Shown here: positions 9,012 to 28,632 of the stretch, in pieces
How positions within the stretch are numbered: position 1 is the first letter of the stretch
Layout: every line of letters starts with the position of its first letter
NCBI GenBank assembly: GCA_964417965.1
Contig: CAYQJX010000010.1
Span: forward strand, 318-64,317
Length of the DNA: 64,000 nt
Reading direction: 5' to 3'
From: an uncultured Elusimicrobiaceae bacterium
GTDB taxonomy: Bacteria > Elusimicrobiota > Elusimicrobia > Elusimicrobiales > UBA9959
Position numbers and translations under genes: made by a program
Notes under the pieces: generated by a model
Told to the model about the DNA's origin: nothing
What the model saw: the letters and a program-made list of their open reading frames with translations, nothing else
Database searches by the model: none

Positions 9012-9056
9012 CCAGATAATTGTGCCTTTTTTGCCGAGCTCCCGCAATTTGGGCGC

Positions 9057-11589: not shown

Positions 11590-12368
11590 TTTTTTATATC
11601 CGTCCGCCCGGCACCAAGGGTCTTCAAAGCCCTGTCCACTATCTCGCCGGCGGCTATGCTGTCCATGCCGCCGGTTCCCTCCGCGGCAGTTATCGCCTGG
11701 TGCTCCGCATACCCGTGCATGGTGGCGGCCGCGGACCCCCAAAGAGAGATAACGGGGGTGCCGGTCATGTGCGCGGCATGCATGAGGAAGTTGTCGGAGG
11801 TGATCAGCAGGTCCATCCGCTTTAGCAGCAGCACCGCCTCCTGGGGAGTGGTCACTCCGGCCAGCGAATAGGCGTATTTAACTTTTTCCGCCCCGCCCTG
11901 CCCGAGCTGCACCACCAGCGCCCCGCTGTCTCCGAGGGCCTTGGCCACCTCTCCCCACTTGCTCCTGGCCATCATCTTGCCCGGAGAAGCACTGTCCGGG
12001 GCGATGGCCACGTTCTTTGCCTGCCACGGGATCATGGAAGCCACCAGGTCGTCCGAAACCCCGTCCATAGGCAGGTACAGGGTTTCCGGCGCGGGCAGTT
12101 CCAGACCGAAGAGTTTAGCCAGACGCTGGAAAGCGCGGGAAGCGCCGCCGGCTTCGGCCCTGTCAACGGTCAGCACCGGCGCGCCCTTAGGCAGATAATC
12201 TATCTTTTCTATGGCCGGGTGGCCGGCCAGCATTCCGGCCGAGGCAGCGCGCCGGATGACGTTATACTTCTTCCCCAGCCTGTCGTGAGCCAGCTTAAGC
12301 ACCCCCGAGAGCAGCAGCGTGCCGCCCAGGCTTTCCGGAGCGTCTATCCATTGTGTCTCAGTTGTCAT
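11586..12368 (-). CDS. Glycosyltransferase family 9 (heptosyltransferase-like)
   Basis: LITSDNFLMHAAHMTGTPVISLWG and LAGVTTPQEAVLLLKRMDL GT9 C-terminal motifs. Confidence 0.75.
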   Translation of the reverse strand: MTTETQWIDAPESLGGTLLLSGVLKLAHDRLGKKYNVIRRAASAGMLAGHPAIEKIDYLPKGAPVLTVDRAEAGGASRAFQRLAKLFGLELPAPETLYLPMDGVSDDLVASMIPWQAKNVAIAPDSASPGKMMARSKWGEVAKALGDSGALVVQLGQGGAEKVKYAYSLAGVTTPQEAVLLLKRMDLLITSDNFLMHAAHMTGTPVISLWGSAAATMHGYAEHQAITAAEGTGGMDSIAAGEIVDRALKTLGAGRTDIKK

Positions 12369-13467
12369 GTTTGGCTCCCCCCTCGTAACGTAAGCCGGTT
12401 ATCGGCTCGAAATACTTTGTCAGGAACAGTTTAGTCGCGGCGCACCAGCCGGTCTTATGGCGCAGGTCACCGTGAAGGGCCAGGGAGTTCATGGGGCACC
12501 CGCCGTGGCAGATGCCCCAGAAACGGCACCCCCCGCACTCACCGGCCTGCAGCACTGCGGAACGCTCCAGCCAGTCCTTGCGCTTCTCCCTGCCGAACAC
12601 CTCGCCGATGGTGGTATCCGCGATGTTGCCGTAATTGACAAGGTTCCAGTCGGCGGAGCAGCTGCAATGCGAAAGCTCGCCCCGCGGGCCGATGTACATG
12701 TGATTATTCCCGCAGCGGCCGCCCCTGGTGCAGAGCAGGCCAGTGTCCTTACTCGTGTAGTAGCCGTAGTATTCGGAGAAGGGACGCACCATGCCGCGCC
12801 AGCCCGGGGTCTTCCACCAAAGCTTGAACATCTCACCCAGGAAATCCGCGTACTCTTCGGCCGTTATCCCGAGATCCCCCTGGTTCCCGCCTTGCACAAG
12901 CACCGGGTTTATCATCAGGTTGTCCGTCAGATTGGTCAGGAATTTCAGCAGTTCCCGCGGAACGGCCAGGGATTTTTTGGTCACCACGTAGATGATGCCC
13001 CACCGCATATCGCTTTCCTCCAGCAGGGACACGCCTTTGAGAAAGAGCTTGTTATAGCTGCCGGAATCCCTGCCGCCGCCGAACCCGCGCACATTATCCA
13101 GCGGGTCATAGCTGGTCCCGACGTTCGTTATGCCCAGGTTGCGCAGCGCGGCCACCAGTTCAGGATTGAGCAGCGTGAGGTTGGATTGTATGAGATTGGA
13201 GATCCTGCTCTTGGTGGAAGGGCAACACTCGGCCTGCAGCCGCGCCGCCTTGTTCAGGTAGTCGGCCCCGAGCATCAGCACTTCCCCGCCGTGCCAGGTC
13301 AGGTTGACATGCTCGGCCGGCCGGGCCTTAAGGTACTCGTCCACGCGGGTGAACACCAGCCTCAGCATGTCCAGAGACATGTCCGGAACGCTTTCTTTAT
13401 GCACCACGTCGCAATAGGCGCAATTGGCGTTGCAGCGCTCGGTAGCTTTGAAAATTATTGTCGGCAT
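12358..13467 (-). CDS. Radical SAM/SPASM maturase (anSME-like branch)
   Basis: CNANCAYC; WHGGE; SPASM cysteines C..C...HCSC...CGGCRFWGICHGGCP...C. Confidence 0.88.
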   Translation of the reverse strand: MPTIIFKATERCNANCAYCDVVHKESVPDMSLDMLRLVFTRVDEYLKARPAEHVNLTWHGGEVLMLGADYLNKAARLQAECCPSTKSRISNLIQSNLTLLNPELVAALRNLGITNVGTSYDPLDNVRGFGGGRDSGSYNKLFLKGVSLLEESDMRWGIIYVVTKKSLAVPRELLKFLTNLTDNLMINPVLVQGGNQGDLGITAEEYADFLGEMFKLWWKTPGWRGMVRPFSEYYGYYTSKDTGLLCTRGGRCGNNHMYIGPRGELSHCSCSADWNLVNYGNIADTTIGEVFGREKRKDWLERSAVLQAGECGGCRFWGICHGGCPMNSLALHGDLRHKTGWCAATKLFLTKYFEPITGLRYEGGAKHDN

Positions 13468-14285
13468 TTGTTGTTAACCTCATCGGCGGCTTCCAGCAGC
13501 GCCGTTATGAACGGCTTCATCCTGCAGGCGTTGGCGTCCTCGCTTTTCCTGAAACCGCACATCCGCCACGCGGGGCAAAGGGCGCAGCCCCCGAAGTTCA
13601 GCAGCGGGGCGCGGCGCTTTTCCCTGGCGGACAGGCTGAGCCCCGCGAAGTCCACAGCCTCCGGCTTATCCAACGTTCCCACAAAGTCACCTTTAGCCAG
13701 GGCGGCGCGGGAAACGGCGATATTACCCGCCTCGTCGCAGTGGAAGAAGGTCCCCTCTTTTTCCAGATAAAGCTCGTTGTAATCCGCCTGCTGGTTCTTG
13801 TACTCGGTATAAGCGTAGAGGAAGGGCTCCACCGAAGTGTGGGCCACTTTACCGCAGGAGTCATAAGCCAGCAGGTCTTCCATGGCGTCCCAGTCGGCGT
13901 TGTCCCCGTCCAGGATCAGCCCCGTCTTCACCATCAGCGAGGACAGCACGCGCGCCGCGGTGATATTTTCCGGAGTGGCCGGGAAATAAAAACGCGCCGC
14001 CGAGCTGCGCAGATTCTCAAGGGCCGGGGCACAGTCCAGAAGGCGCCCGGCGCTTTGCAGGCGGAAAACCAGCGGCAGGTCCAGCCATTCTTTTTTCAGC
14101 TCCACCCCGGCAAGGCTGTCGGCGGAGACCTCTATGCAATGCAGCCTGTCGCGGCTTACGGCCGCGGCTATCCTGCCGATCTCCCCGGCGTCCCCGGTGC
14201 GCACGGCGAGGCGGCGGGCGCCCGTTTTAGCGATGACGGCCCCGCTGAAAGGAACCACAAAGATTTGCTTTGTCGTATCTGTCAT
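13455..14285 (-). CDS. Degenerate radical-SAM-like protein: SPASM-type Cys tail but no CxxxCxxC
   Basis: FHCDEAGNI and CALCPAWRMC near the C-terminus; overlaps both flanking rSAM genes (start reset to ATG 14285). Confidence 0.6.
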   Translation of the reverse strand: MTDTTKQIFVVPFSGAVIAKTGARRLAVRTGDAGEIGRIAAAVSRDRLHCIEVSADSLAGVELKKEWLDLPLVFRLQSAGRLLDCAPALENLRSSAARFYFPATPENITAARVLSSLMVKTGLILDGDNADWDAMEDLLAYDSCGKVAHTSVEPFLYAYTEYKNQQADYNELYLEKEGTFFHCDEAGNIAVSRAALAKGDFVGTLDKPEAVDFAGLSLSAREKRRAPLLNFGGCALCPAWRMCGFRKSEDANACRMKPFITALLEAADEVNNKCRQ

Positions 14286-15283
14286 ATTTTGAAAGCGCGT
14301 ACGCCACCCTCCCGGTCTATCTCGCGCAGCACGTGCGCCGCGCAGCCGCCGTCGCATACCCCTTTTTTTCGCCAGGAGCAGCTGTCGCATTTTTCGTAGA
14401 TGCCGCCGGCTTCCTGCCTGATGTTCTTAGTGAACGTCCTGAAGTATTCCATCATGCCGTTGTAATCGTCGAAGTCGTACACCGATTTGCGGTGCGTGCC
14501 GGACAGCGGGAAGCAAGCCCACGCCATCATGTCCGGACCTATGTCCACGGGACCGCCGCAGGTGAATTTATGAACGCCCTTGGTGGCTTTATACAGCTGC
14601 CCCAGCTTTTCGTCGCTGAAAAGGCACATGGGGAACCCGCAGTCCAGCCCCGGGCAGACGTTCTGCTGGTCGAACACCGGCAGGTGGTTCAGCAGTCTGT
14701 CCACGATCCCCTGGATGTCGGGGATGGAGATGAAGGAATTATTCTCCCGCAGGATCGGGTGCGTAAGCCCCAGCCGTATGGAGCGCTTAAGCCCGTAACG
14801 GTTTATGTACTTGAAAAGGAAATCCAAACTGAAGTCTTTGCGGTAGATGTTAAAACCCGGCGTCACATGCGCCCCGAACTCCTCAAGGAACTCCTCCACC
14901 CGTTTAGTTTCGCTTTCCGGGGAGAAGGCCGGGTCGTTAAGGTTGCAGAGGAAGGAAACTTTCCTGTCGGCCTGCGGAACGGTCTTGTAAACCCGGCGCA
15001 GGTCATTTTTCACCTTCTCGGACATGATGCCGCTGCTGAAGACCGTAACGGAAAAATCCCGCTTAAGCGCGTAGGCCAGGAAGTCGGCGAACTGCGGGTG
15101 CAGCGTCGGCTCGCCCCCGAGGAACCTCATTTCGCGGCAGCCGCCCTGCGCGAACAGATCCGCGAGATAGACCAGGTCTTCCCATTTGATCACGTCGCCG
15201 CCGTCGTTCTCACCCATCTGCTTCTTGGCGAAGCAGTACGGGCAGGAACGGACGCATTTTTGTGTAAGCAGTATGTTTGGCAT
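14282..15283 (-). CDS. Radical SAM/SPASM protein
   Basis: CVRSCPYC; FLGGEPTLH; CGGPVDIGPD...AC and CDSC...CDGGC. Confidence 0.88.
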   Translation of the reverse strand: MPNILLTQKCVRSCPYCFAKKQMGENDGGDVIKWEDLVYLADLFAQGGCREMRFLGGEPTLHPQFADFLAYALKRDFSVTVFSSGIMSEKVKNDLRRVYKTVPQADRKVSFLCNLNDPAFSPESETKRVEEFLEEFGAHVTPGFNIYRKDFSLDFLFKYINRYGLKRSIRLGLTHPILRENNSFISIPDIQGIVDRLLNHLPVFDQQNVCPGLDCGFPMCLFSDEKLGQLYKATKGVHKFTCGGPVDIGPDMMAWACFPLSGTHRKSVYDFDDYNGMMEYFRTFTKNIRQEAGGIYEKCDSCSWRKKGVCDGGCAAHVLREIDREGGVRAFKI

Positions 15284-15321
15284 ATTAGGTTCTTCTTTTC
15301 GGCTTTCTTGCCCCGGGCGTC

Positions 15322-15354
15322 AGCCGCGGCTGCGGTAATTCCGCCGCCGCGGCT
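15322..15354 (-). promoter_or_regulatory. GC stem-loop after precursor 1 (no U tract)
   Basis: AGCCGCGGC-T-GCGG / CCGC-C-GCCGCGGCT arms. Confidence 0.55.
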
Positions 15355-15368
15355 TCCCCAGGCTGCAC

Positions 15369-15668
15369 TTAGTCTTTGTACTGCACGTACTGATCATAAT
15401 AGTAGGTGTTCCCGTTACTATAACCAGCGCCGTTCGTATAGGTCCCGCTCCTGTCGCTGTTTTCCGCCGCAGCCGCCTGCAAACCGGTGACAGCAGAAGC
15501 CACATGTCCTATGGTGCTGAACTTGGGCCCCTGTACTGCGGCCGTAGCCGCATGCGCCGCCGGCACGAAAGCCCCGATGAGCTGAAGACCCATGCCCACC
15601 CCTACCGAAGCTTTCGCCATCCGTTTAAGCGCCTCGCGCCGCGAAACCCTTCCGTCTTTAACTTCCAT
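15369..15668 (-). CDS. Putative RiPP precursor 1: Tat-type signal peptide and Tyr/Asn-rich C-terminal core
   Basis: AAGGAGG RBS; SRREALK twin-Arg motif, h-region and AHA cleavage site; core GTYTNGAGYSNGNTYYYDQYVQYKD; first gene of the rSAM operon. Confidence 0.75.
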   Translation of the reverse strand: MEVKDGRVSRREALKRMAKASVGVGMGLQLIGAFVPAAHAATAAVQGPKFSTIGHVASAVTGLQAAAAENSDRSGTYTNGAGYSNGNTYYYDQYVQYKD

Positions 15669-15722: not shown

Positions 15723-15738
15723 AGCAATTATAATGCCA
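15723..15738 (-). promoter_or_regulatory. Sigma-54 (-24/-12) promoter of precursor 1
   Basis: TGGCATTATAATTGCT on the minus strand, GG-N10-GC spacing. Confidence 0.8.
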
Positions 15739-15790: not shown

Positions 15791-15826
15791 ATTCTCATTT
15801 AAGACCGCTTATTTTCATTTGAAAAT
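15791..15826. promoter_or_regulatory. Tandem palindromic activator-binding sites (candidate UAS)
   Basis: ATTCTCATTTAAGACC (15791) and ATTTTCATTTGAAAAT (15811), starts 20 bp apart. Confidence 0.65.
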
Positions 15827-15872: not shown

Positions 15873-16400
15873 TTATTTAGCCGCTTCGACCGTAACTTCA
15901 ATGCGGTTCTTCGGTTCGTCCAGGATAAGGGTGCTTTTCCCGAGCAGGAGCCGCGTCGCGGCCTGGAAACTCACGAACGCAACCTGTGCGCCCGCCCCTG
16001 GCACAAGGAGAGGTCCCTGCAGTTCGAACTGGGATTCAAGGATAACACAATTCCTGTCCTGCGGATCCGTTAAAGGCTTGAACCTGGCCTTGCTCATATA
16101 GCGTTTCATGTCGTACTTACGCTTACCGTCGACTTCTCCCAGGTCCACATTGGTCTCCCCGCTGGAGGAGAACTCGGCGTCCGCCCTGTCCACAGCCGTC
16201 AGGCTGCCGGAACTCTTCAGGATCTCCGTACTTATTTTGTAGGTTATCCTGTAATTGTCTACGCCGTACCTTACCATCTGTACCGGCCGATTATCCGCGC
16301 CCTCGCCCATTTTCGGACCCTTCTCGGCGGCATTGCCCTGGCCCGCCAAGGCAAGCGCCATCACGCCGAAAAGCGCGGCCACTATCATTCTTTTACCCAT
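15873..16400 (-). CDS. Secreted hypothetical protein
   Basis: Signal peptide MGKRMIVAALFGVMALALAGQGNA after a GGAG RBS; preceded by a sigma-54-type promoter. Confidence 0.65.
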   Translation of the reverse strand: MGKRMIVAALFGVMALALAGQGNAAEKGPKMGEGADNRPVQMVRYGVDNYRITYKISTEILKSSGSLTAVDRADAEFSSSGETNVDLGEVDGKRKYDMKRYMSKARFKPLTDPQDRNCVILESQFELQGPLLVPGAGAQVAFVSFQAATRLLLGKSTLILDEPKNRIEVTVEAAK

Positions 16401-16464
16401 TTTCTTGTCCTCCCGTTTATCAGACCTGACTTTGAAAACAATTTTAACGCTTTGCAAAAGGGGG

Positions 16465-16480
16465 AGCATTTTCCATGCCA
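16465..16480 (-). promoter_or_regulatory. Sigma-54-type promoter
   Basis: TGGCATGGAAAATGCT on the minus strand (GG-N10-GC). Confidence 0.6.
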
Positions 16481-16661: not shown

Positions 16662-18440
16662 CTAGCTCATATATTTGCTGCTGGATTCCCAGAGCTTGCG
16701 GTAGTACGGCAGTCCGGCCAACAGCTCCTCATGGCTTCCCTCTCCCGCGATGTTGCCATTGCGCAGGACAACGACACGCTCGGCTAATTTTATCGCGCCA
16801 AGCCGGTGCGTGATGATGACGGCCGTGTGCCCCTTCTTAAGTTCCATGAAGTCCTGATATATGCGGTCTTCCTCAAACGGATCTATCGCGGCCGTGGGTT
16901 CGTCCAGCACGATCAGTTGATGTCCCCTGTAATACGCCCTGGCGATGGACAGGCGCTGCCATTCACCGCGGGATAATTCGGTACCATCGAATTCTTTACT
17001 GAGCAATGTCTCCAGACCCCGGTCCAGCCGTTTAAGGTCGACGTGGAAATCCGCGGCAGCCAGCGCGGATCGCACCCGCTTGTCGGAACGGTCCTGCTCA
17101 TTCGAGAACGCGCTGATCCTGACGTTGTCCCCCAGCGTGAGCTGGTACCGCTGGAAATCCTGAAAAACGCACGACACGTTACCGTAAAGGTCGTCTTTCA
17201 CGATATCTTTAAGAGCGATGCCGCCCGCGAGGACCTCGCCTTCCCCGGGTGCGTACAAGCCGAGCAGCAGCTTGGACAGCGTGGTTTTTCCGGACCCGTT
17301 CTCCCCTACGACGGCAACGGTCTCGCCAGCACGGAGGATCAACGAGATGCGGCTTAAAGCCGGCGTGGATGCGCCCGGGTACGTAAAACCGACCTCTTTC
17401 ATGACAAGGTCTTTCCTATCTCCGCAGCGCAGTTCACCGTACTTCTGCTCCTGCATTTCGAAAAAGGAGAAATACTTTTCCAGTCGGCCGGCGCTGACGG
17501 AAAGCTCTCCGAGCCTGCTGTCGAAAACTTCCTCCATCATCGCGAACATCTCCATGGTAGCCGCCAGGATGGCCGAGAACGCACCTATGGAGATGCTGCC
17601 CTTGATCAGCAGCGAGATCAGGAACACCAGGATGCTCATATACCCGGCCAGCGAGAACGCCTTGGCGGCGGTCTCCACGCCCTGGCTTTTCAGGTCGGCC
17701 CTGTATTTAAGCTGCTGGATCTTCTTGAAGGTCAGGTCGTAAAGCAAGAGGAAGAAGCCACTGGCGCCCAAAGCCCGCGTCTCCTTCAGGTATGTCCGGG
17801 ATACCAGGCATTCCTTGTAGTGCTCTTCTTTCCGGCGCAGCGCGACGGACTGGTCTTCAAGCCGGGTGTAGTAGCGGGAGCGCAGGAGATGTGAGGCCAG
17901 GACCGGGACGAAAACAAGGGGCAGTATCAACGGCAGCAGCGGCTGTACGCGGTACAGGTAAGCTCCCATGAAACCGAAATAGGGGATATAGAGGCACAGG
18001 ATATCCATGAGTACATGGACCAATTTGCGCACGTCGGCTGCTCCCCGGTAGGCTTGGCTGATCCGGTCCAGCACGTCCGGATCCTCGAACCCGGCTGCCG
18101 GCAGCCTGGCGGCTTTCTGGTTTAAGAGCTCGGTCATTTTCTGACCGCTCTTGCCGGCATAGAATTCACCGTAAAAGTTGGCGACACCGTCCACAGCTTC
18201 GTCCAGCACCTTTATAACGGCGAACACACAGAGGTACCACAGCACCGACGAGAATGGGACGCGGCCTGCGGCCAGCGCGACGACCTGGTCGAAGAACTTC
18301 TGTAGCCAAACCGTGGTAACGACCAGCATGACGGCGTCCAGGAACGTGAACGCGTACTCTATGACGAAATGCCGGGGCGAGACGCGGAACACCTGCGGGA
18401 TAGCCCTGAGGGCCTGAAGCAGGAAATGCGGCAGGGTCAT
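16662..18440 (-). CDS. ABC exporter, TMD-NBD subunit B
   Basis: GENGSGKTT Walker A, LSRGEWQR signature, LDEPT Walker B; start at 18440 overlaps the upstream stop. Confidence 0.88.
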   Translation of the reverse strand: MTLPHFLLQALRAIPQVFRVSPRHFVIEYAFTFLDAVMLVVTTVWLQKFFDQVVALAAGRVPFSSVLWYLCVFAVIKVLDEAVDGVANFYGEFYAGKSGQKMTELLNQKAARLPAAGFEDPDVLDRISQAYRGAADVRKLVHVLMDILCLYIPYFGFMGAYLYRVQPLLPLILPLVFVPVLASHLLRSRYYTRLEDQSVALRRKEEHYKECLVSRTYLKETRALGASGFFLLLYDLTFKKIQQLKYRADLKSQGVETAAKAFSLAGYMSILVFLISLLIKGSISIGAFSAILAATMEMFAMMEEVFDSRLGELSVSAGRLEKYFSFFEMQEQKYGELRCGDRKDLVMKEVGFTYPGASTPALSRISLILRAGETVAVVGENGSGKTTLSKLLLGLYAPGEGEVLAGGIALKDIVKDDLYGNVSCVFQDFQRYQLTLGDNVRISAFSNEQDRSDKRVRSALAAADFHVDLKRLDRGLETLLSKEFDGTELSRGEWQRLSIARAYYRGHQLIVLDEPTAAIDPFEEDRIYQDFMELKKGHTAVIITHRLGAIKLAERVVVLRNGNIAGEGSHEELLAGLPYYRKLWESSSKYMS

Positions 18441-20236
18441 GCGGGCACCTCCCGGTGCTCCTTGTACCATTTTGCCTGTGCCGTGAACATCTCCGCGTAA
18501 TAACCGTTCCGGGCAAGAAGGATGTCGTGCGGGCCTTGTTCGATGATCCGGCCTTCGTTCATGACTATTATTTCGTCGGCCAGCCGTGCCGCCGCCAGGC
18601 GGTGCGTGATGTATAAAGTGGTCATCCGCCCGTTAAGGCCGGACCTTCTGACGGTCTCGTAGAGGTTATTCTCGGCTAGCACATCAAGGGCCGCCGCCGG
18701 TTCGTCGAACACAAAAAGCCTGGCTTCCCGGCCGAAACTCCTGGCCAGTGCCAGCAGTTGCCATTGCCCGCCGGACAGGTCCGTGCTGTCCGGCTCCAGT
18801 TTACCCAAAGCGGTATCGGCGCCTTTTGGGAACGAACGGACTTTCACGGCCAGGCCCATCTGCTCCAGCAGCGCGTCTATCTTTCCCGCGGGAAGAGCGG
18901 GATTTCCCAATCTCAGTTGTTCCGTTACCGTCAGTTGATACTTGGCGTATTCCTGGTAAAGCACCGAGAAGTACGCTTTCCTTTCCGCGGCGGTGAAGGA
19001 GTTTATATCCCTGTTGTTCAGCAGTATCCTGCCAGTATAGTTCCGGTAGAGGCCCGTCAGCAACTTTATCACGGTCGATTTCCCGCAACCGTTCCTGCCC
19101 ACGAAGGCATACTGCTTGCCGGGAAGGATGGTAAGCGAAAAATCGCGGAGAATCTCCCTTTCGGACCCGGGATACTTAAAGCTAACGCGGTCGAAAACCA
19201 AGCTTTCCAGCGGCATGCCGCAAATGCGCTCATCCGGGGCCAGGTCGCTGCCGGGCACCTCCGAAAGCCGCTGCGCGCACTCCAAGTCTTCCAGGTACAG
19301 CCGGTTGCCGGTGTAGTCTTTGAGCAGTCCCGAAAGTTGCCAGGACAAGGTATGGATAAGCGCCGAAAGGGAGATCACCAGGCTTATAAAGACGCCGGCC
19401 GTCATCCTGTTCTCCTTTACGAGCAGCAGCAAAAGCAGGGAAACAGCTACGAGCAGCAGCGTGAAGACCGCGCTTACGCTCTTTGAGCGGAGAAAGATCT
19501 TCCTGTCCGCCTTAAAATCCAGCTCTATTCTCCGGTCCGTCTCCTCGCCCCAGAATTTGCCTATCCTGTCGCCAAAGCCGAACAGCGTCCTCTCCGAGGC
19601 CGCTTCCCTGGAAGACAGCAGGGACCTGAAATACTTGGCCTTCCTCGCGTGGGGAGCTATCTGCGCACCGGCTTCGTACGCCTCGGTCCCGCTCTTCTTG
19701 GCGATCATGACCACCGGAAAGGCCAGCAGCAGGCACGCGACGGCGGCCGGAACGGAGGAGTGGCCTATAATGGCGATAAGCCCCAGGACGCTGAGGATAA
19801 TCGCGGCCAGGTCCAGCAGATTAGTGAAACCGCGCTCTATCGAGCCGGGAAGGTCTTCGCCTACGCGCTCAAGCAGGTCGTAGGTCTCGTCGTTCTCGAT
19901 ATGCTCGTAGGAAAGACGGTTGAGCTTTGTGACAAGCTGCGGTTTCAGCTTGTTTTCAAGACGCATGTTGAAGCTGAGCTCCGCGAGCCGGGCCGCGGCC
20001 TGGAGCAGATAGCCGGCCATTAATACGGCAAAAAGCCCCGCCAGCGGAAAAAAGGCGGCGGACAGGCTTTGGGCGGAGATAACTCCGGGCAATACGTCAA
20101 GCAGGCCGGCGATGGCCAGCGTCTGCAGCACAGGCAGGGCGGCCTGCGCGGTGCGGAGGAGCAGCAGGCCCGCGGTTAACGGCCTGCTGCAATGGAAAGA
20201 TATGGCGATGTACCTTAGGTTCTTGAGAGTATTCAT
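18437..20236 (-). CDS. ABC exporter, TMD-NBD subunit A
   Basis: GRNGCGKST, LSGGQWQ, FDEPAA; N-terminal TM domain with no C39 peptidase domain. Confidence 0.88.
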   Translation of the reverse strand: MNTLKNLRYIAISFHCSRPLTAGLLLLRTAQAALPVLQTLAIAGLLDVLPGVISAQSLSAAFFPLAGLFAVLMAGYLLQAAARLAELSFNMRLENKLKPQLVTKLNRLSYEHIENDETYDLLERVGEDLPGSIERGFTNLLDLAAIILSVLGLIAIIGHSSVPAAVACLLLAFPVVMIAKKSGTEAYEAGAQIAPHARKAKYFRSLLSSREAASERTLFGFGDRIGKFWGEETDRRIELDFKADRKIFLRSKSVSAVFTLLLVAVSLLLLLLVKENRMTAGVFISLVISLSALIHTLSWQLSGLLKDYTGNRLYLEDLECAQRLSEVPGSDLAPDERICGMPLESLVFDRVSFKYPGSEREILRDFSLTILPGKQYAFVGRNGCGKSTVIKLLTGLYRNYTGRILLNNRDINSFTAAERKAYFSVLYQEYAKYQLTVTEQLRLGNPALPAGKIDALLEQMGLAVKVRSFPKGADTALGKLEPDSTDLSGGQWQLLALARSFGREARLFVFDEPAAALDVLAENNLYETVRRSGLNGRMTTLYITHRLAAARLADEIIVMNEGRIIEQGPHDILLARNGYYAEMFTAQAKWYKEHREVPA

Positions 20237-20287
20237 GTTGCTTTCGCCGCGGCCGTATTACGGCCATTTAACCGCTGCAGCGGCAGA

Positions 20288-21370
20288 TTAAAGGCAGCGG
20301 TCGGCCCGTGTTTTAAACTTGGTCCCTTCTCCGGTAGTCCCGCCTTTTCTCATGACCCGGTATTCCGATTCGGCCGTTCTTTTAGAATCGGAAGAGCAGG
20401 CGAGCGGCGAACCGTCCTCCAGCAACGCGTGCCCGGGACAATGGACGCACTTTTCCTTCAGGCCGCAGGTGGAACACTGCTGCAGATCGCTTTTCTTCAA
20501 CGACAGCAGATATTTCCGCTCGGGGGAATCATACCAGATGGTCTTCAGATCGCTCGAGAAGACATCCCCCAGCTTATGGCGGAAACTGATGCAGGGGAAA
20601 ACCTCACCGCTTGCATCTATGAAGATGGTGTTCTTGAGCGACGGGCAGATGCTCTCGTCCTGCCTCACTTTCTCCAGCAGCGCTTCGGCCTCCGGATTGC
20701 TGCTGGCCAGTATCAGGGCAATGGCGTCATCCATCCCGTCATCGTCCATGCGCAGGTCCCGCACTGACGTGTCGCCGTTCATTTTTGAGGAAATGGTAGG
20801 ACAGGGATTGAAATCGAAACCGTTTTCGGCACAGAATCCGCCCACTTCGCGGAAATCATGCCGATTGGTCTTAAGTATCGGAGTTTTTATCTCTACGGCG
20901 ATCCCATGCTTCTTCAGCAAAGCCACATTATCAAGGGCCTTCCGCAGAGACCCCTTGACTCCGGTAATGGCCTCGTGGACCTCATGGTTCAGGGAAAAGA
21001 TGGTCGTACCGAATGAGGAAATGTGAAGGTCCGCGAGCTCTTTGGCTATGCTCTCATTAATAAGCGTCGCGTTGCTCAGCAGATTGACGCTGAACCCCAG
21101 TGACCGGGCGTCCCTTACAGTGCCCATGATGTTCTTTCTTAGGAAGATCTCGCCTCCGGTCAGATTAAGGTACAACGCCCCAAGTTCCCTCAATTCCCGC
21201 AGAAGTCTCGCGACCACTGCGTCATCAAGCCCTTCAGAAACGCGTTCGGGAATATAGCAATGGGTGCATTTCAGGCTGCACCTGGTCAGAAGCTCAATGG
21301 TAACATTGAGCGGGATATCGGCTTTCTGGGTTATTGTCTGCAGCGAAACGGCCTTGATATTTTCTTTCAT
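20288..21370 (-). CDS. Radical SAM/SPASM peptide maturase (PqqE-like)
   Basis: CSLKCTHC; LTGGE; CPSL...GEVFPC...CSTCGLKEKCVHCPG...C. Confidence 0.9.
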   Translation of the reverse strand: MKENIKAVSLQTITQKADIPLNVTIELLTRCSLKCTHCYIPERVSEGLDDAVVARLLRELRELGALYLNLTGGEIFLRKNIMGTVRDARSLGFSVNLLSNATLINESIAKELADLHISSFGTTIFSLNHEVHEAITGVKGSLRKALDNVALLKKHGIAVEIKTPILKTNRHDFREVGGFCAENGFDFNPCPTISSKMNGDTSVRDLRMDDDGMDDAIALILASSNPEAEALLEKVRQDESICPSLKNTIFIDASGEVFPCISFRHKLGDVFSSDLKTIWYDSPERKYLLSLKKSDLQQCSTCGLKEKCVHCPGHALLEDGSPLACSSDSKRTAESEYRVMRKGGTTGEGTKFKTRADRCL

Positions 21371-21642
21371 TTTGCCAGCTCCCCGGAAGCAGCGATGAAC
21401 CCCTTCTCGACCAGGAGTTCCGTAAGTCCGGTCATATCAGCATCCAGCACTCTTTCCTCCACGTCATAGCTTTTTAGCAGCTCGGCCCTGATGGCCTCAT
21501 AGTCATGGAGCTTCCCGATAAGCAGCCAGAAATCTTTCCCGACATTGTCGAGGGCGTAGATGAACGAGTTCCGCTCATCGCGGAGATACAGCGTGTCCAG
21601 GATCACCTGCCACGCCACGTTAAACGTATATGTCAAACGCAT
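21367..21642 (-). CDS. PqqD/RRE peptide chaperone
   Basis: 91 aa; IYALDNVGKDFWLLI...ELLKSYDVEERVLDADMTGLTELLVEKGFI; ATGA overlap with the rSAM gene. Confidence 0.85.
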   Translation of the reverse strand: MRLTYTFNVAWQVILDTLYLRDERNSFIYALDNVGKDFWLLIGKLHDYEAIRAELLKSYDVEERVLDADMTGLTELLVEKGFIAASGELAK

Positions 21643-21808
21643 CCGGCTGTCCCCTTTTAGCGAAAGTGTAAGGTAAAAAAGCCTGAAACCCACCTGCTTC
21701 GAATAAATCCCGGAAAAGATCTAACCCGAACGTATTATATTCTTAAATGGCCGGACTGGTCCAGAACATGCCGGAGGCAGCCGGGAACCGAAACCGCAAT
21801 ATAGGCGC

Positions 21809-21855
21809 CAGGACAACGGCAGCGGACACTAACTACTCGTCCCTGCCGTTGCCTG
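21809..21855 (-). promoter_or_regulatory. Stem-loop after precursor 2
   Basis: CAGG-A-CAACGGCAG-C-GGAC pairs with GTCC-CTGCCGTTG-CCTG. Confidence 0.6.
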
Positions 21856-21867
21856 ACCCGGGACCGT

Positions 21868-21981
21868 TTAGAGCACCTCGCCGGATTTGCCGTTGCAGGC
21901 ATTGCCGTGACCGCAGCGCGTGGCGGTTTTGGCGCAATTGGAAACAACGGTCAGAACGGGCGTCGAGTAAGTTTTTTTCAT
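21868..21981 (-). CDS. Putative RiPP precursor 2 (37 aa, 3 Cys)
   Basis: AGGAG RBS; MKKTYSTPVLTVVSNCAKTATRCGHGNACNGKSGEVL with a YxxPxL RRE-binding leader motif; directly upstream of the PqqD and rSAM genes. Confidence 0.82.
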   Translation of the reverse strand: MKKTYSTPVLTVVSNCAKTATRCGHGNACNGKSGEVL

Positions 21982-22040: not shown

Positions 22041-22056
22041 AGCAATTTATATGCCA
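22041..22056 (-). promoter_or_regulatory. Sigma-54 promoter of precursor 2
   Basis: TGGCATATAAATTGCT on the minus strand. Confidence 0.8.
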
Positions 22057-22111
22057 GGGCGCCTTGTTACAGAAGCGGCCAAGTGTTTTGCTTACGGATG
22101 CCGCAAAATAT

Positions 22112-22147
22112 ATTCTCATTTGAAAATATTGTTTTCAAATATGAATA
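22112..22147. promoter_or_regulatory. Palindromic activator site (candidate UAS) plus a weaker second site
   Basis: ATTCTCATTTGAAAAT at 22112-22127, identical to 28617-28632; degenerate GTTTTCAAATATGAAT from 22131. Confidence 0.65.
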
Positions 22148-22221
22148 GAAAAGCAGGGCAATGGCCCGCTTTCCTAGTTTTGGATAGCTCCGGGAGGTCA
22201 GGCCCAGGGCGGTTCTTTGCC
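22141..22221 (-). repeat. Imperfect direct repeat, copy B: kinase 2 3' end plus terminator
   Basis: Aligns with 16510-16594. Confidence 0.8.
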
Positions 22222-23880
22222 GGTTACTTTAAGCCAGGGGAGATGAGAGAATTTTTCGGGGCCGTGGCCGGTGGCCATGGTGAGGTCGGTAAAACCTTTC
22301 GCATGCAGGGCCTGGGCCGTGTCTTCGCCCTTAACGTCGCCGCCCAGCTCGGAGTCTATATAGATTGGCGTATCTTTGGGCAGGGCTTCAGTGCCGGCGA
22401 TAAGTTCTTCCGGGGTTTTATGCGCCTTGAACTCCACGCCTGCGGCTTTGGCGGCCATCCGCCAGTTCATGTGCACCAACAGGTCGTCGTCCAGCAGCAC
22501 CGCGCGCGCAGGCGCGGTTTTAGCCGCGGCCGCCGGCAGTTCCAGCGTAACGGCGGTGCCTTTGCCCGGCTCGGATTCCATCCTGAAGCTGCCGCCCCAG
22601 GCCTCCACCGTTTTGCGGGCGTGGTAAACGCCCAGGCCGGTGCCGCCGGCCTTGCCGTGCGTTTCGCCCTTCTGCCCCAGCCTGGCCAGGATCTCCGGCT
22701 GTATGCCTTTGCCATTGTCCTTTACGGTCAGCAGCACTTTGTGGTCCAGGGCGGACAGGGAGACCGAGACGGTACCCGGCCCGCTGAAGGCTTCTACCGA
22801 GTTATTGATAAGGTTTGAGACCAGCCGCTGGAATTCGGTGGGCTCCACTGAAGCTTTGATCTCCGCAGCGCCGGCGGCGAAATCGATACTGACGCCGGGC
22901 TTATCCTTGTGCTGCAGCCGCTTCTCCGCGACCACCTGCTCCACAAGACCGCCAAGAGCGAGCACCGCGGTTTTGGGTTTAGCCGGCCCGGAGGACGGCG
23001 CGCGGTAACGGGTTAGCAGTTCGTCGGCTATGCCCTGCATGCGCGCCACCGCCCCGTCTATCATGTTGCGCTGCTCCTGCGGGAGCTCCAGCCCTTTAGC
23101 CGCCGCATCCAGCGCCGCCAGCGGCGACCGTATATCGTGCGCCACCTGCGCGGCCAGGTCTGAGGTGGCCTTGGAGATAGCCAGCTCGCTCTCCAGCCGC
23201 GCCGCCTTGCCGAGCGCGTCGCTCATGCGCCCCGTCATCTGCGCGAAAGGCGTGCCTATGGTGCCGGACGGCAGGCCGGCTATATGTTTTTTTATGGACT
23301 CCCGGATGACCTCGCTGTGCCGGGAGTCGGCCACGGCGTTGATCTCGTTGACCGAGCGCTCTATAGCGAGCAGCGTCTTCATTGCACCCAGATTGGAGAT
23401 AATCAGCAGCCCCAAGAAAAAGAAGACCACGGTAATGAACAGCACGTAGTTCTGGCCGAACACCGCGGCGTTTACGTCCAGCAGGTCTATCACGTACTCA
23501 AGCCGGCCCAGCTCAGCGCCGTTGGAGACGAACGGCACGTTATGCGTTATCTGCGCGCGCGGCCGGTCGTAAAGATTGCCTACTATCGCCTCTTTGAAGA
23601 TCCACCTGCTGCCCTCGAACACTACCGGGTGGAAAGCAATGCGTTTTATGTTTTCGTTCTTTATGCGCCACATTATGCGCTGCGTCTCAAAAACGTCGCC
23701 GTCCAGGAAGGCCTTCTCAAAGTAGGCCGCGTTCTGCCGCATGGCGGTCAGCAACTTGTCATCAGCCACCCGCACAGCGGAAAACGCCGAGAAAGCCTGC
23801 CAAAAAGCGACGAAGACCAGCACCGACACAGCATAGTGCCGCCAGTTATAAGCGAATATCCTGAGAAATATTTTTACCAT
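22198..23880 (-). CDS. Membrane hybrid histidine kinase (HisKA-HATPase-REC), copy 2
   Basis: VAHDIRSPL, NLINNSVEA, DNGKG, GTGLG; receiver LDDD...IDS...ATG...GKEPPWA; C-terminal half closely similar to copy 1. Confidence 0.9.
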   Translation of the reverse strand: MVKIFLRIFAYNWRHYAVSVLVFVAFWQAFSAFSAVRVADDKLLTAMRQNAAYFEKAFLDGDVFETQRIMWRIKNENIKRIAFHPVVFEGSRWIFKEAIVGNLYDRPRAQITHNVPFVSNGAELGRLEYVIDLLDVNAAVFGQNYVLFITVVFFFLGLLIISNLGAMKTLLAIERSVNEINAVADSRHSEVIRESIKKHIAGLPSGTIGTPFAQMTGRMSDALGKAARLESELAISKATSDLAAQVAHDIRSPLAALDAAAKGLELPQEQRNMIDGAVARMQGIADELLTRYRAPSSGPAKPKTAVLALGGLVEQVVAEKRLQHKDKPGVSIDFAAGAAEIKASVEPTEFQRLVSNLINNSVEAFSGPGTVSVSLSALDHKVLLTVKDNGKGIQPEILARLGQKGETHGKAGGTGLGVYHARKTVEAWGGSFRMESEPGKGTAVTLELPAAAAKTAPARAVLLDDDLLVHMNWRMAAKAAGVEFKAHKTPEELIAGTEALPKDTPIYIDSELGGDVKGEDTAQALHAKGFTDLTMATGHGPEKFSHLPWLKVTGKEPPWA

Positions 23881-25292
23881 CTAAAATCAGCCACCTCTGG
23901 ATATTCCGAGAACCCCCGACCGACATCTAAATTTTTAATATTTTGTGGATAATAAAGCTTTGTACTGCTTTGATACAACGGCAAGACAACAGCCTCCCGC
24001 TGCACCCCGCTCGCCAACGCCATCGCTGCCTTCACCTTATCGGCCCTACCGTCCAGGGAGAGTAATTCCTTGTACATTTTCCTGAGATCGGCAGGAACAC
24101 TATCTATCACAGCAGCCTCACCCAGATAGTACTCAAAAAACGGCGCATATTCCGGCCTGACCGTATCAGATACAATCACGATCAGCCCATAAGACTTCAA
24201 CTTAGAGCGATTATGCAATTCGCTTACCAGATCCTTTGGCACGTAGTTCTTAATAATTAGTTTGAGCCCAGTACGATCGAAGAGTCGTTTAGAGAACTCT
24301 CTAAGCTGCACAGCATTGTTTTGGTATAGATTCGCTAAAACAATTTGTTTGTTCTTTAAATAGTGCTTTTTCTCATTAGTGCATGCCGTACTACTTCTGC
24401 CCGCCTCCCCCCCTGGAATGCCTAAAGGCAGCAGCCACTTCACATCCAGTAACCCCTTCCTTTCCGGAAGAAAAGCTTCCCTAAATTCTCCCGCGTCGAC
24501 ACAATTATATACAGCATCGCGAAAACGGCTATCTGGATTATTGATGGCTAATCCCACGACACGCAGTTCGATGTTGAAAAATCCGGCAAACTCTTTCTGG
24601 ATCCATTCCGGCTGCTGGAATGTGGACAGTTTGTTGAAGTCACAGATACTCCTATCGTTAAGCCGCACGTCCCCCGGGCCGGAATACTCATGAAAGATTA
24701 CTTTGTTGTATCCATTTCGGACCGGCTTTTTTCTTTCCAGTGTGATTTGCTTACTCTTCACGCTTTTCACGAAAAAGGGGCCCAGCCCGGATTCGTATCC
24801 GGTTTCAACTTTTATGCTGGGCGCATTATCAAATTTTGATAAAAAGTCCAGATACCCATGCTTCGGTTTCTGGAACCTTATAGAAACACAGCCTTCGTTT
24901 TTGTTTATAGTGGCCCCTGGCTCATATTTCTTTGTGACTTCGGAAATATATGAGAGGAAATACTGGAAAGAAAATCCGTTTTTCGCGTCAAAGCGCAGGG
25001 TCGTGTCGGGACAAAACAGGTACTCAGTAGATAAGTTGTTGCGTCCCCAGCGTTTTAATATGCGTGACGCATAGTTCTGGCCGTCATCTTGGCGAAAAAC
25101 CGGTTCGTGCGTCTGCCGGAGGACATAGAAGGTGGAGGTTTCAGATTCGTTCTTAACGGACACTTCCGCAGGCAAGGCTCCGATCAGCACCTTCCAAACA
25201 TCCTTCTCAGAGGACGTGCCGGCAGCGCACTCCCCGGCAAAGATCGGACAAAAGAGTACCCCTAATATCCAGGCCGCGTGATTTGTAGACAT
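23874..25292 (-). CDS. Family-5-like solute-binding protein, copy 2
   Basis: Signal peptide; HEPVFR...ASRIL, GLGPFFV and VLPLYQ segments; overlaps the kinase start; AT-rich. Confidence 0.65.
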   Translation of the reverse strand: MSTNHAAWILGVLFCPIFAGECAAGTSSEKDVWKVLIGALPAEVSVKNESETSTFYVLRQTHEPVFRQDDGQNYASRILKRWGRNNLSTEYLFCPDTTLRFDAKNGFSFQYFLSYISEVTKKYEPGATINKNEGCVSIRFQKPKHGYLDFLSKFDNAPSIKVETGYESGLGPFFVKSVKSKQITLERKKPVRNGYNKVIFHEYSGPGDVRLNDRSICDFNKLSTFQQPEWIQKEFAGFFNIELRVVGLAINNPDSRFRDAVYNCVDAGEFREAFLPERKGLLDVKWLLPLGIPGGEAGRSSTACTNEKKHYLKNKQIVLANLYQNNAVQLREFSKRLFDRTGLKLIIKNYVPKDLVSELHNRSKLKSYGLIVIVSDTVRPEYAPFFEYYLGEAAVIDSVPADLRKMYKELLSLDGRADKVKAAMALASGVQREAVVLPLYQSSTKLYYPQNIKNLDVGRGFSEYPEVADFRW

Positions 25293-26008
25293 TCAGAATG
25301 GAAACCTATTTTTTTCAGGAATTTATTGGATGCGACATTGAACGGGTTGGCGCCTGTAGCCACAACATCCACAACCTGCGACTTTAACCAAGAGACCATC
25401 CGGCTTTTCACCTCGCACCTCTCATCCCCGGTCAACCCCGGGTCTATCCACACCCAGGTTATCCAATCAATATCCGTCCCGTCAAAGTATTTCGCCTTGT
25501 TCAATGGCAGCAATGCAATAGGATGACCGCTTTTACCGAGACAAAACACTTTTGCTTCCGGGATATGCTGTTCCGCGTTCGTTTGAATGATCTTAAGGTA
25601 CTCACTCTCAAGATATTGTTTCCACGGATACCCGAGTTTTTTAGCCCATGGACCACCGAAGTAGTTTTTCTCCGTAGACAAATAGAGTTCCTGCACCTCC
25701 GCTGAGCTCTTAAACGGATAGTCATCGATTCCAGACGGCGTTGCGCATTGGTTGGGGACAGTTAGCCCATCTCGTTGCGTCCGGTAGATCAACCTGGCTA
25801 AATATTTACCAGAAAGGTTCTTGTTCAGCGCGGCAAAGTCTTCGGGGATCTCATGCTTAAAATTCACAAGAAGTGTCGGGGTTTCCAAAGGCCAAGGAAT
25901 ATTATCCACAAGAGCGTTAGTAATCACGGCTGCATCATCCGCTTCGCACACCAGCAGCCTGTTCGTTTTGCTCACAACCTTTATTTTTTCCGGCATATCA
26001 TGACCCAT
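25262..26008 (-). CDS. Putative GNAT-fold protein
   Basis: C-terminal ITWVWIDP...NPFNVASNKFLKKIGF resembles GNAT motifs A/B; start may be 25996. Confidence 0.5.
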   Translation of the reverse strand: MGHDMPEKIKVVSKTNRLLVCEADDAAVITNALVDNIPWPLETPTLLVNFKHEIPEDFAALNKNLSGKYLARLIYRTQRDGLTVPNQCATPSGIDDYPFKSSAEVQELYLSTEKNYFGGPWAKKLGYPWKQYLESEYLKIIQTNAEQHIPEAKVFCLGKSGHPIALLPLNKAKYFDGTDIDWITWVWIDPGLTGDERCEVKSRMVSWLKSQVVDVVATGANPFNVASNKFLKKIGFHSECLQITRPGY

Positions 26009-26876
26009 AAATTGTTTTTTTATCCGTTGTCAGTTTCCTGAAAACTTTTTCACATAACACGCATGGAGCCGAATCCTCCGGGAGGAACGGGGCCATATTT
26101 AAACCAAATTTTTTGATAATCCCCCTGAAAGACAAACTTCGCATCATACGGTAAAACTCACTGTCCAAGTGAGCTTTAAGCGTTGGATGACAAATGTTTT
26201 GGATATTAGTATCAAAAACCAGAGAAGAGCAACAAATACTAAATCCTTTTTCCGGCAAGCAGGTTATTACTTTTTTATTAGGGCACCTGCGAGACAAGAC
26301 ATTGCGGTCAAAACTGGGATGCTGGTAAAAGATCCTGTTACTCCGGGCCCGCCCTACTGGCAACACCTTTTGCATCCCTATCTGAAAGTCTCCGATGTCC
26401 TTCAACTTATTAAGCAGCAGCATATCCATCGGCGACTGAACAGATGCCACCACTCCGAACCCGATATTCAAACTGCGACAGGCATTATGCAGGTTCCGGA
26501 TGTAGGAGAATGGCAAGAACTTCTTATGAAATTTATCATAAGACAACTGCACAGAATCCAATTTTTTAAACGAGGAGAGAAGTGTGACCGCGGAGCTCTT
26601 TGTTTTAGCAAAATGCCCGTTAGTGGTTATTTTGACTTTGAATTTATTCAATTTCCCGAGTTTCGAAAGGAACGCATTTGTACGGTCGAGATATAGGGTG
26701 GGCTCTCCCCCCAGAAAATGCAACGTTTTCATGCCATGCGATTCAACCGCATCCAGCAGAAGGCTCTCTTCTCGCGGATTAAGCGCCGCACTTGCATCAG
26801 GAGAACAACAGTGCGCACATGCAAAGTTGCATTTAAATCCGAACATGATGCCGATCTTGGATATTCTTTCAGTCAT
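25998..26876 (-). CDS. Radical SAM enzyme resembling the YydG/EpeE peptide epimerase
   Basis: CNFACAHCC, TTNGHFA, LSYDKFH, PVGRA, RCP...ICCSSL.F and CVLC follow the YydG/EpeE motif order as recalled from memory. Confidence 0.72.
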   Translation of the reverse strand: MTERISKIGIMFGFKCNFACAHCCSPDASAALNPREESLLLDAVESHGMKTLHFLGGEPTLYLDRTNAFLSKLGKLNKFKVKITTNGHFAKTKSSAVTLLSSFKKLDSVQLSYDKFHKKFLPFSYIRNLHNACRSLNIGFGVVASVQSPMDMLLLNKLKDIGDFQIGMQKVLPVGRARSNRIFYQHPSFDRNVLSRRCPNKKVITCLPEKGFSICCSSLVFDTNIQNICHPTLKAHLDSEFYRMMRSLSFRGIIKKFGLNMAPFLPEDSAPCVLCEKVFRKLTTDKKTIYGS

Positions 26877-26888
26877 TTTCCACAAAAA

Positions 26889-26927
26889 TTAACGCCCGAG
26901 TTACCTTTGGTAAAGCCCGGGCGTTAA
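26889..26927 (-). promoter_or_regulatory. Stem-loop after candidate precursor 3
   Basis: TTAACGCCCG...CGGGCGTTAA outer stem with inner TTACC/GGTAA. Confidence 0.55.
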
Positions 26928-26962
26928 CCCATTTGAATATCGAAAAGAACTTTACAGAAAGA

Positions 26963-28509: not shown

Positions 28510-28525
28510 AACAATTTTAATGCCA
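28510..28525 (-). promoter_or_regulatory. Near-consensus sigma-54 promoter in front of the rpoN-like gene
   Basis: TGGCATTAAAATTGTT (-12 is GT rather than GC). Confidence 0.5.
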
Positions 28526-28596: not shown

Positions 28597-28632
28597 ATTC
28601 TCATCCGAGAACTGCCATTCTCATTTGAAAAT
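28597..28632. promoter_or_regulatory. Tandem palindromic activator sites between rpoN and the activator gene
   Basis: ATTCTCATCCGAGAAC (28597) and ATTCTCATTTGAAAAT (28617), starts 20 bp apart as at 15791/15811. Confidence 0.68.

Follow-up and report, generated by a model that had tools for sequence, protein, structure and literature searches.

The stretch of DNA analyzed here, referred to as the window, comprises 64,000 nucleotides of an uncultured Elusimicrobiaceae bacterium (GenBank assembly GCA_964417965.1, contig CAYQJX010000010.1) and contains, on the minus strand at 16662-21981, a five-gene cassette for a peptide of the class made on ribosomes and then modified post-translationally (RiPP). 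The cassette opens with the gene for a 37-residue precursor peptide (21868-21981, MKKTYSTPVLTVVSNCAKTATRCGHGNACNGKSGEVL), followed by a discrete RiPP recognition element (RRE) of the PqqD family (91 residues, 21367-21642), a peptide maturase combining a radical S-adenosylmethionine (rSAM) and a SPASM domain (360 residues, 20288-21370), and two ATP-binding cassette (ABC) half-transporters, ABC1 (599 residues, 18437-20236) and ABC2 (16662-18440, 592 residues from the called start, with the open reading frame (ORF) reaching 18470). The PqqD-like protein matches Pfam PF05402 with 33 bits (cut-off 23.4) and the NCBIfam model geo_PqqD_fam with E 1e-5, and found no meaningful match among PDB sequences; the maturase matches PF04055 (72 bits) and PF13186 (36.5 bits), and both transporters match ABC_tran, with no Peptidase_C39 detected in either of them by domain search. 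The PqqD and rSAM genes overlap, stop to start, and so do ABC1 and ABC2 when the latter is read from its called start; the two transporters probably form a heterodimeric exporter. Directly 3' of the precursor stop codon lies a stem-loop (21807-21859, minus strand, arms 21814-21822 and 21843-21851, folding energy -38.1 kcal/mol, z = -3.05) that has no clear U-tract and is likely a hairpin stabilizing or attenuating the transcript. A first-pass annotation of this DNA had listed the 37-residue peptide with its YSTPVL leader, PqqD, the rSAM-SPASM enzyme and two ABC half-exporters, all of which are present where it placed them, and its assignment of the whole as an RRE-dependent rSAM/SPASM RiPP cassette is supported.

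The small ORF at 21868-21981 is a real peptide gene and not a chance reading frame. A ribosome-binding AGGAG lies 7 nt 5' of its ATG, and the identical 37-residue peptide is encoded on contigs of three samples (ENA, JGI and Logan), even though the maturase of the JGI contig is just 90% identical to that of the window; the precursor gene differs at five nucleotides among these three contigs, in every case synonymously. A hidden Markov model (HMM) built from 17 related precursors of the KIS-like type described below, with the window's own subclade left out, aligns to residues 1-34 with 21.3 bits, a score reached by 0 of 2000 composition-matched shuffles (best shuffle 11.3). The peptide is composed of a leader of approximately residues 1-22, including Y5-S-T-P8-V-L10, and a core C23-G-H-G-N-A-C29-N-G-K32 followed by SGEVL, and it displays three cysteines in the arrangement C16-x6-C23-x5-C29 as well as the triplet H25-G26-N27. 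We give hardly any credence to the explanation that this ORF is unexpressed or not a substrate, with the rSAM enzyme and PqqD acting on something else: while the sequencing runs that contain the locus are DNA runs alone, such an explanation is at odds with the ribosome-binding site and conserved promoter of the ORF, with the purely silent divergence across three samples, and with the presence of homologous peptides next to maturase homologues at 19 or more loci of several phyla.

Relatives of the maturase were collected to place the cassette in a family, using for the genome scan a smaller alignment, as an initial one of 35 sequences was too diverse. At E <= 1e-30 the maturase has 769 matches among 1.84 billion cluster representatives, just one of them with more than 50% identity, and homologues span Clostridia, Paenibacillus, Petrotogales and Elusimicrobia. 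A regular-expression search for Y..P.[LIVM] 5' of the homologous maturases returned no match, the precursor mostly being located downstream of the rSAM gene, and reading the DNA around the homologues revealed a short ORF adjoining nearly every close one. These precursors share a two-part plan, with a lysine-rich leader of the form [YF]-x-x-P-Φ at the N-terminus and, at the C-terminus, a core reading C-x(2-5)-C-[NQR]-G-[KR], as seen beside homologous maturases in Paenibacillus tuaregi (...FYMSECNQGTCNGR, with MKKLVKKVAKKKTLVAFYMSECNQGTCNGR as a minimal natural peptide), in a Lachnospiraceae bacterium (MKKKSYKKPMAISVISLQETSSCNQGTCNGK) and in Tepiditoga spiralis (MDYKEPIVKVSKVVIEIDGCGKGTCNGKSRSVFCN), and likewise in the close relatives L086 (MLKAYSVPELILVSKSAPIVVQCGHGGACNGKNNDIPF), L004 (...QCGHGGKCNGKDRTIN) and L090 (...MCGHGNGCNKKSKNEVHPLQ).

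Across 19 aligned relatives, C23 and C29 (window numbering) are the sole invariant residues, and G31 is conserved in at least 90%. The closest relatives have Ser or Thr in place of C16, which is private to the window lineage; this rules out C-x6-C-x5-C, the motif emphasized by the first-pass annotation, as the functional unit, and the family signature is instead the [YF]-x-x-P-Φ leader together with the core pattern C-x(2-5)-C-[NQR]-G-[KR]. H25 is restricted to a small subclade with the sequence CGHG, comprising the window, L004, L086 to L089 (four contigs encoding a single peptide) and L090/L091, while most family members lack a His. As a metagenome scan found no relative closer than 41%, this subclade rests on four distinct loci. 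At position 27, L086 and L004 have Gly, so that two of the three close relatives read H-G-G and the H-G-N highlighted earlier occurs just in the window and L090.

These observations bear on the three-residue His-Asn cyclophane of the triceptide type (H25-G26-N27) that had been offered as an alternative product. H-G-N does fit the aromatic-x-X pattern of such cross-links and H25 is conserved in the CGHG subclade, but the two closest homologues, L086 and L004, present at position 27 a Gly, which has no C-beta, most family cores contain neither His nor another aromatic residue, and no cyclophane-synthase model is found among the 25 best NCBIfam matches of the maturase. Minimal cores of nine residues, such as CNQGTCNGK, have no aromatic residue at all, hence a cyclophane or a Trp/Tyr cross-link is excluded as the family reaction. 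For the window peptide itself we regard a His-Asn cyclophane as very improbable, and with the aromatic-x-X motif not conserved in the family we have rejected it.

The remainder of the cassette is conserved along with the precursor. PqqD, rSAM enzyme, ABC1 and ABC2 are collinear and co-conserved, each being 55-65% identical in L004 and L086 (55% for the PqqD of L004) and 30-44% identical in Tepiditoga, Paenibacillus tuaregi and others. ABC1 has its ortholog in the first ABC gene at L004, L086, L090, L085 and L007 (30-65% identity), and ABC2 in the second (33-60%); since each gene thus pairs with its positional counterpart even in distant loci, the half-transporters represent an old and probably heterodimeric part of the system. 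The nearest named relative of the cassette is a Firmicutes metagenome-assembled genome (L004), and most other close ones are Clostridia or Paenibacillus; together with a G+C content at 16-28 kb of 0.47-0.585, below that of most of the remaining window (about 0.59-0.66), this fits horizontal acquisition. The window matches an ENA metagenome contig, and the one sequencing run in which every sampled word of the locus is present is a groundwater metagenome. The host belongs to the Elusimicrobia: PBP1C and the response regulator of the contig fall into 90%-identity clusters together with proteins from metagenome-assembled genomes of Elusimicrobia.

Used as the query of a profile search, the precursor alignment retrieved a peptide (P0091) carrying the NCBI name "KIS family RaS-RiPP peptide [Streptococcus ruminantium]", of sequence MTIEDKVTYTVPLLNKGEIIPVYACNQGTCNGKSHNRC..., with the leader YTVPLL and the core CNQGTCNGKS. 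Its locus is ordered Rgg, PqqD, rSAM/SPASM, precursor, ABC, and identity to the window proteins amounts to 37% over 339 residues for its maturase (E 2e-80) and to 28% for its PqqD (E 2e-10). A second streptococcal branch is reached through the S. cameli maturase P0031 (locus L084), 35% identical to the window enzyme, whose neighboring peptide MAKKFLKPTLRVKKTTTFVASNKSALCSGSSSHIVVDVDK is an SSH motif RaS-RiPP (NF050043, 87 bits); peptides such as that of L005 (CKQGACNGASH...) bridge the KIS-like and SSH types. Streptococcal loci have a gene for an Rgg regulator just upstream, while none is present at the window cassette, which hence departs from the shp/rgg quorum-sensing context of the original streptococcal network. 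The KIS model NF050044 (cut-off 70 bits), which scores the S. ruminantium peptide at 131 bits and other non-streptococcal relatives at 15-28 bits, gave no match to the window peptide at E <= 0.01. Both subfamilies were reportedly catalogued in a streptococcal survey by Bushin et al. in 2018. A June 2026 review describes KIS and SSH as uncharacterized and cites the 2018 survey as the sole source for them (PMC13361665). On sequence grounds, the window cassette is a divergent addition to these bioinformatically recognized KIS/SSH-like RaS-RiPPs. As a separate observation, the SSH-type loci L084 (6345-7364) and L020 (8860-9807) hold a second rSAM paralogue after the precursor, 33-34% identical to the window enzyme, and the SSH branch may involve two rSAM steps.

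The leader had been called lasso-like, and that resemblance is borne out: residues 1-12 match the NCBIfam lasso_cyano leader model with E 1e-4 and 22 bits (cut-off 33), and the window PqqD matches lasso_PqqD_Bac weakly with 21 bits (cut-off 80, E 2e-4), both below cut-off. The KIS PqqD has lasso_PqqD_Bac as its best NCBIfam match (47 bits). M-x-Y-x-K-P-x-Φ leaders also occur at approximately 100 loci of more distant maturase relatives in Elusimicrobia, Acidobacteria, Lentisphaerae, Atribacteria and gut Clostridia, ahead of quite different cysteine cores, and the lasso resemblance, as judged by these comparisons, is real, yet a superfamily-wide trait. According to the RRE-Finder authors, around 300 discrete RREs of the lasso model pair with rSAM enzymes and not with lasso machinery (PMC7470986). 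Neither a lasso B2 protease nor a C (asparagine-synthetase-like) cyclase was found among the ORFs scanned at approximately 10-34 kb or among the genes called in KIS/SSH loci. Consequently, although the leader and PqqD matches speak for it, a degenerate or unusual lasso system has next to no probability in our view: B2 and C are missing from both gene sets, the two model matches stay below their cut-offs, the same RRE type is documented with rSAM partners, and the lasso assignment is rejected for want of B2 and C. The earlier statement that the locus has no protease and no lasso cyclase stands for 16662-21981 and, as regards lasso enzymes, for the scanned ORFs, but has to be amended by a pair of M16 peptidases at 30163-33172, outside the cassette.

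In passing we note dozens of families of Cys-core peptides beside related rSAM/SPASM genes, all with the M-x-Y-x-K-P-x-Φ leader (L096, L105, L111, L118, L124 and others within L092-L171, as well as L017, L025, L028, L033, L035 and L056), including MEYVKPAVINPVVVNSAKCGDGPCGRPCSVNKA from the gut, ...AQCNPNSQPSGRPCNPPKPGGR, ...IETAALACGKCIAGNPI... from Elusimicrobia and ...PEESLAAGCK... from Acidobacteria.

Which reaction the maturase performs was approached through its cysteine motifs, profile matches and predicted fold. The enzyme carries the rSAM motif C31-x3-C35-x2-C38 and SPASM cysteines C242, C260, C299, C302, C308, C311 and C325; the SPASM region of the family has seven conserved cysteines and no conserved eighth, the same pattern as in the aligned CteB. 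In CteB, a substrate cysteine completes auxiliary cluster I, whereas the auxiliary clusters of anSME and SuiB are fully Cys-ligated. Searched against the PDB, the family profile matches the sactisynthase SkfB best (128.6 bits), followed by PqqE (83.8), CteB (73.3) and SuiB (71.9). None of the curated NCBIfam models reached its cut-off with the maturase, the best being GeoRSP_rSAM (95 bits, cut-off 400). The AF2 model (pLDDT 91) has SuiB, PqqE, SkfB and anSME as Foldseek neighbors; these score alike, so the fold search does not separate chemistries. The characterized streptococcal RaS enzymes that act on cysteine, GggB, QmpB and NxxcB, make thioethers, including un-nested bicycles (PMC9389541).

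Thioether cross-linking from C23 and C29 is our best guess, at about even chances. It follows from the two cysteines being the sole invariant core residues, with the SSH cousins keeping just the C29-equivalent one, from minimal cores without aromatics, from a seven-Cys SPASM domain as in CteB, from SkfB as the best solved relative, and by analogy to the thioethers formed by Cys-using streptococcal RaS enzymes (PMC9389541). The locus also shows the combination that typifies sacti- and ranthipeptides, conserved core Cys donors beside an RRE-associated rSAM/SPASM enzyme. The thioether-linked peptide put forward in the first-pass annotation thus remains the likeliest chemistry, as an inference that no curated sacti- or ranthisynthase model backs.

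As a whole, the reading of the locus as a self-contained KIS-like cassette, including the pathway proposed below, appears probable to us, with several findings weighing against it. The window peptide falls below the cut-off of the NCBIfam KIS model, and the run search returned no RNA run among those with the locus. Models for sacti- and ranthisynthases are far from being reached (StsB 71 against 625 bits, AlbA 66 against 850, PapB 48 against 340, SkfB 46.5 against 300), and models of non-thioether enzymes score equally or higher (GeoRSP 95, NirJ2 88, AhbD 85, WgkB 77); the closest fold match of the AF2 model, SuiB, is an enzyme that makes a C-C bond. Strict conservation is seen at none of the acceptor positions, L090 having C-N-K-K and the Cys-Cys spacing ranging from 2 to 5, hence any ring positions are a guess. 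Finally, no structure or enzymology for a KIS or SSH member was found in the literature searched, making the thioether chemistry an extrapolation.

The same findings leave room for an alternative in which the family is as described, but the rSAM enzyme introduces a non-thioether change at or near the invariant Cys-x-Gly. Candidate reactions are C-beta oxidation of cysteine to a thioaldehyde or formylglycine (anSME-like), formation of a Cys-derived heterocycle (thiooxazole-like), epimerization, or a C-C or C-N bond with Asn or Lys as a partner. In these cases the cysteine pair would be left to build a disulfide or a metal site, to which the CGHG subclade would add its His. In anSME substrates the site of modification is C-x-[PA]-x-R, and C-x-G-K loosely recalls it. 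Similarity by HMM and fold to AhbD, NirJ, PqqE, WgkB, SuiB and anSME is as high as to thioether enzymes, no acceptor residue is invariant, and KIS and SSH are described as chemically uncharacterized (PMC13361665). Against these points stand the seven rather than eight SPASM cysteines, SkfB as the best profile match, and the thioethers made by the Cys-acting enzymes GggB, QmpB and NxxcB (PMC9389541). Taking all of these options jointly, we regard a non-thioether reaction as rather unlikely, although it deserves to be kept in view, and retain thioether formation as the working model.

The surroundings of the cassette suggest a common regulatory circuit. Approximately 60 nt 5' of the precursor ATG lies a predicted sigma-54 type -24/-12 promoter, TGGCATATAAATTGCT (22041-22056, minus strand), an exact match to TGGCAY-N5-TTGCW, which is conserved in both other contigs with the identical peptide; the window holds two such exact matches, against 0.11 expected. 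The second (15723-15738, minus strand) precedes the gene for a 99-residue Tat-like peptide beside another rSAM gene, and an element with one mismatch (28510-28525, minus strand) precedes a truncated RpoN-like gene. Upstream of the cassette promoter, the motif TTCAAATGAGAATA is embedded in a 16-nt imperfect palindrome (22111-22147, minus strand) and is a putative binding site for a sigma-54 enhancer-binding protein. The motif TTCAAATGARAATA occurs three times in the window (0.03 expected), at 15810-15823, 22111-22124 and 28616-28629 on the minus strand, in each case 55-100 nt 5' of one of the three -24/-12 elements. A fourth -24/-12 match, with one mismatch and without TTCAAATGARAATA (16465-16480, minus strand), precedes a secreted ORF of 175/198 residues (15873-16469).

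Two regulators flank these elements. A sensor histidine kinase (22198-23880, minus strand, HisKA and HATPase_c) is encoded immediately upstream of the cassette and probably regulates it. The three sigma-54 promoters are probably activated by a response regulator (28654-30000, plus strand) that includes an AAA+ domain of the sigma-54 activator type (Response_reg and Sigma54_activat, E 1e-55). The operons headed by these three promoters are neighbors, and each of them includes an rSAM gene. The shared promoters, the TTCAAATGARAATA motif and the flanking kinase and response regulator suggest that three rSAM peptide operons constitute one regulon. Taken by themselves, the sigma-54 elements and TTCAAATGARAATA sites have the appearance of a sigma-54 regulon island of approximately 17 kb. 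The RpoN-like protein (350 residues, 27413-28465, minus strand) has a Sigma54_DBD at residues 217-349 and aligns to the full-length RpoN model over residues 210-350 alone, and it might act as a dedicated sigma-54 paralogue or as a decoy; its gene is transcribed divergently from that of the response regulator and is preceded by a sigma-54-like promoter of its own. Directly 3' of the response regulator gene lies the M16 (pitrilysin/PqqF-like) peptidase pair (30163-33172, plus strand), the first member of which has HxxEH (HLMEH) and a signal peptide. It is the sole candidate leader peptidase among the ORFs scanned at approximately 10-34 kb and may process the peptides of the island; to the cassette, some 8 kb away, it is weakly linked by proximity.

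A bolder proposal may be built on this arrangement, namely that the Cys-x-Gly center common to KIS-like (CNGK) and SSH (CSGSSSH) peptides would be the substrate of an undescribed rSAM reaction other than simple sactionine or ranthionine formation, its product being one of three co-regulated rSAM peptides in a sigma-54/two-component circuit. This center fits into cores of as few as nine residues, none of them aromatic. We put this forward tentatively and consider it more doubtful than not by some way; if true, the circuit would carry its own RpoN-like paralogue, analogous to the Rgg/SHP-controlled streptococcal RaS-RiPPs.

Several further features of the window were recorded. The region at 12358-15668 (minus strand), presumably Cluster 1 of the first-pass annotation, encodes the 99-residue ORF, an rSAM protein (14282-15283), a 311-residue protein, an rSAM/SPASM protein (12358-13467) and a GT9 glycosyltransferase. 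In the 99-residue peptide, a twin-arginine-like signal (SRREALK) is combined with a tail rich in Tyr, Asn and Gly, ...GTYTNGAGYSNGNTYYYDQYVQYKD, and none of the curated families matched it; its 311-residue neighbor likewise has no family match. Upstream of the histidine kinase, a low-GC stretch (0.47-0.52; 23874-27175, minus strand) contains a 70-residue ORF with an N-terminal hydrophobic segment, an rSAM protein of 282 residues (25998-26846) and two proteins of 248 and 472 residues for which no family match was obtained; a third module for modifying peptides, or else one for sensing, may be encoded here. At 6010-9047 (minus strand) an SBP_bac_5-like periplasmic protein (7497-9047) is paired with a histidine kinase (6010-7500), the gene order equaling that of the 472-residue protein and kinase by the cassette. 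The interval 34500-40700 displays strong AT skew (0.27-0.42), with long ORFs on the opposite strand overlapping large plus-strand ORFs; two very large plus-strand ORFs therein (1054 and 971 residues) gave no Pfam match.

Based on the gene content, the residue conservation and the comparisons to KIS and SSH, we propose that the cassette would operate as follows. The 37-residue precursor would be transcribed from the sigma-54 promoter, probably switched on by the neighboring kinase and the sigma-54 response regulator. Its K-K-x-Y-x-x-P-V-L leader would be bound by the discrete PqqD, as lasso B1 proteins bind YxxPxL, and PqqD would in this way present the C-terminal core to the rSAM/SPASM enzyme. 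There, C23 and C29 would most likely serve as sulfur donors for small un-nested thioether rings of the sactionine or ranthionine type, for example from C23 to G26 and from C29 to K32 by analogy, with C16 as a lineage-specific extra. The modified peptide would then be exported by the heterodimeric ABC pair, and leader removal, if any, would be accomplished by a protease encoded outside the cassette, for which the secreted M16 pair is a candidate.

The analysis links a groundwater cassette to KIS and SSH, streptococcal RaS-RiPP subfamilies named since the 2018 catalogue, and these now appear as the tips of a much larger radiation across Clostridia, Paenibacillus, Petrotogales and Elusimicrobia. 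This homology, the sigma-54 and two-component control and the M16 pair beyond the cassette are additions to what had been annotated before. With the reactive unit reduced to a pair of cysteines plus a C-x-G-K tail in a stretch of approximately 10 residues, the core is a small and tractable substrate, and the pairing of a lasso-type YxxP leader with an RRE is seen to be reused across a whole rSAM superfamily. The value of the cassette accordingly resides in a compact entry to the chemistry of the family and not in a new class, while its host and regulation are unusual: a sigma-54 regulon over three rSAM peptide operons would provide a testable model of RiPP control in a Gram-negative organism of a candidate phylum.

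Compared to known systems, the window locus shares with lasso peptides the YxxPxL-type leader and the PqqD-like RRE, but differs in having neither B2 protease nor C cyclase among the scanned ORFs and in a core whose usual acceptor position is occupied by neither Asp nor Glu. With sacti- and ranthipeptides (SkfB, and the un-nested products of GggB (streptosactin), QmpB and NxxcB) it has in common a Cys-donor core, dependence on an RRE, and an rSAM enzyme that bears a SPASM or Twitch domain, whereas its RRE is discrete and not fused, its core is limited to approximately 10 residues and its thioether is a prediction. SSH systems are similar in their homologous maturase, discrete PqqD, [FY]-x-K-P leader and a conserved Cys followed by x-Gly, and are set apart by a single Cys (C29-equivalent), the core C-S-G-S-S-S-H-I and often two rSAM paralogues. 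Relative to KIS, the inter-Cys loop of the window peptide (CGHGNAC) is one residue longer and includes a His, C16 is present as an additional upstream Cys, the long acidic C-terminal tail is lacking, and the cassette has two ABC half-transporters instead of one, sigma-54/two-component instead of Rgg/SHP control, and a host from the Elusimicrobia in place of a streptococcus. Nevertheless, the KIS signature of a Y-x-x-P leader and a C-x(4-5)-C-N-G-K core is present in the window peptide, next to a discrete PqqD and a homologous rSAM/SPASM maturase, and the likeness extends to the Y-x-x-P-Φ-Φ leader (YTVPLL in KIS, YSTPVL here), the C-x4/5-C-N-G-K-S core, the maturase length of approximately 350 residues and export by ABC transporters.

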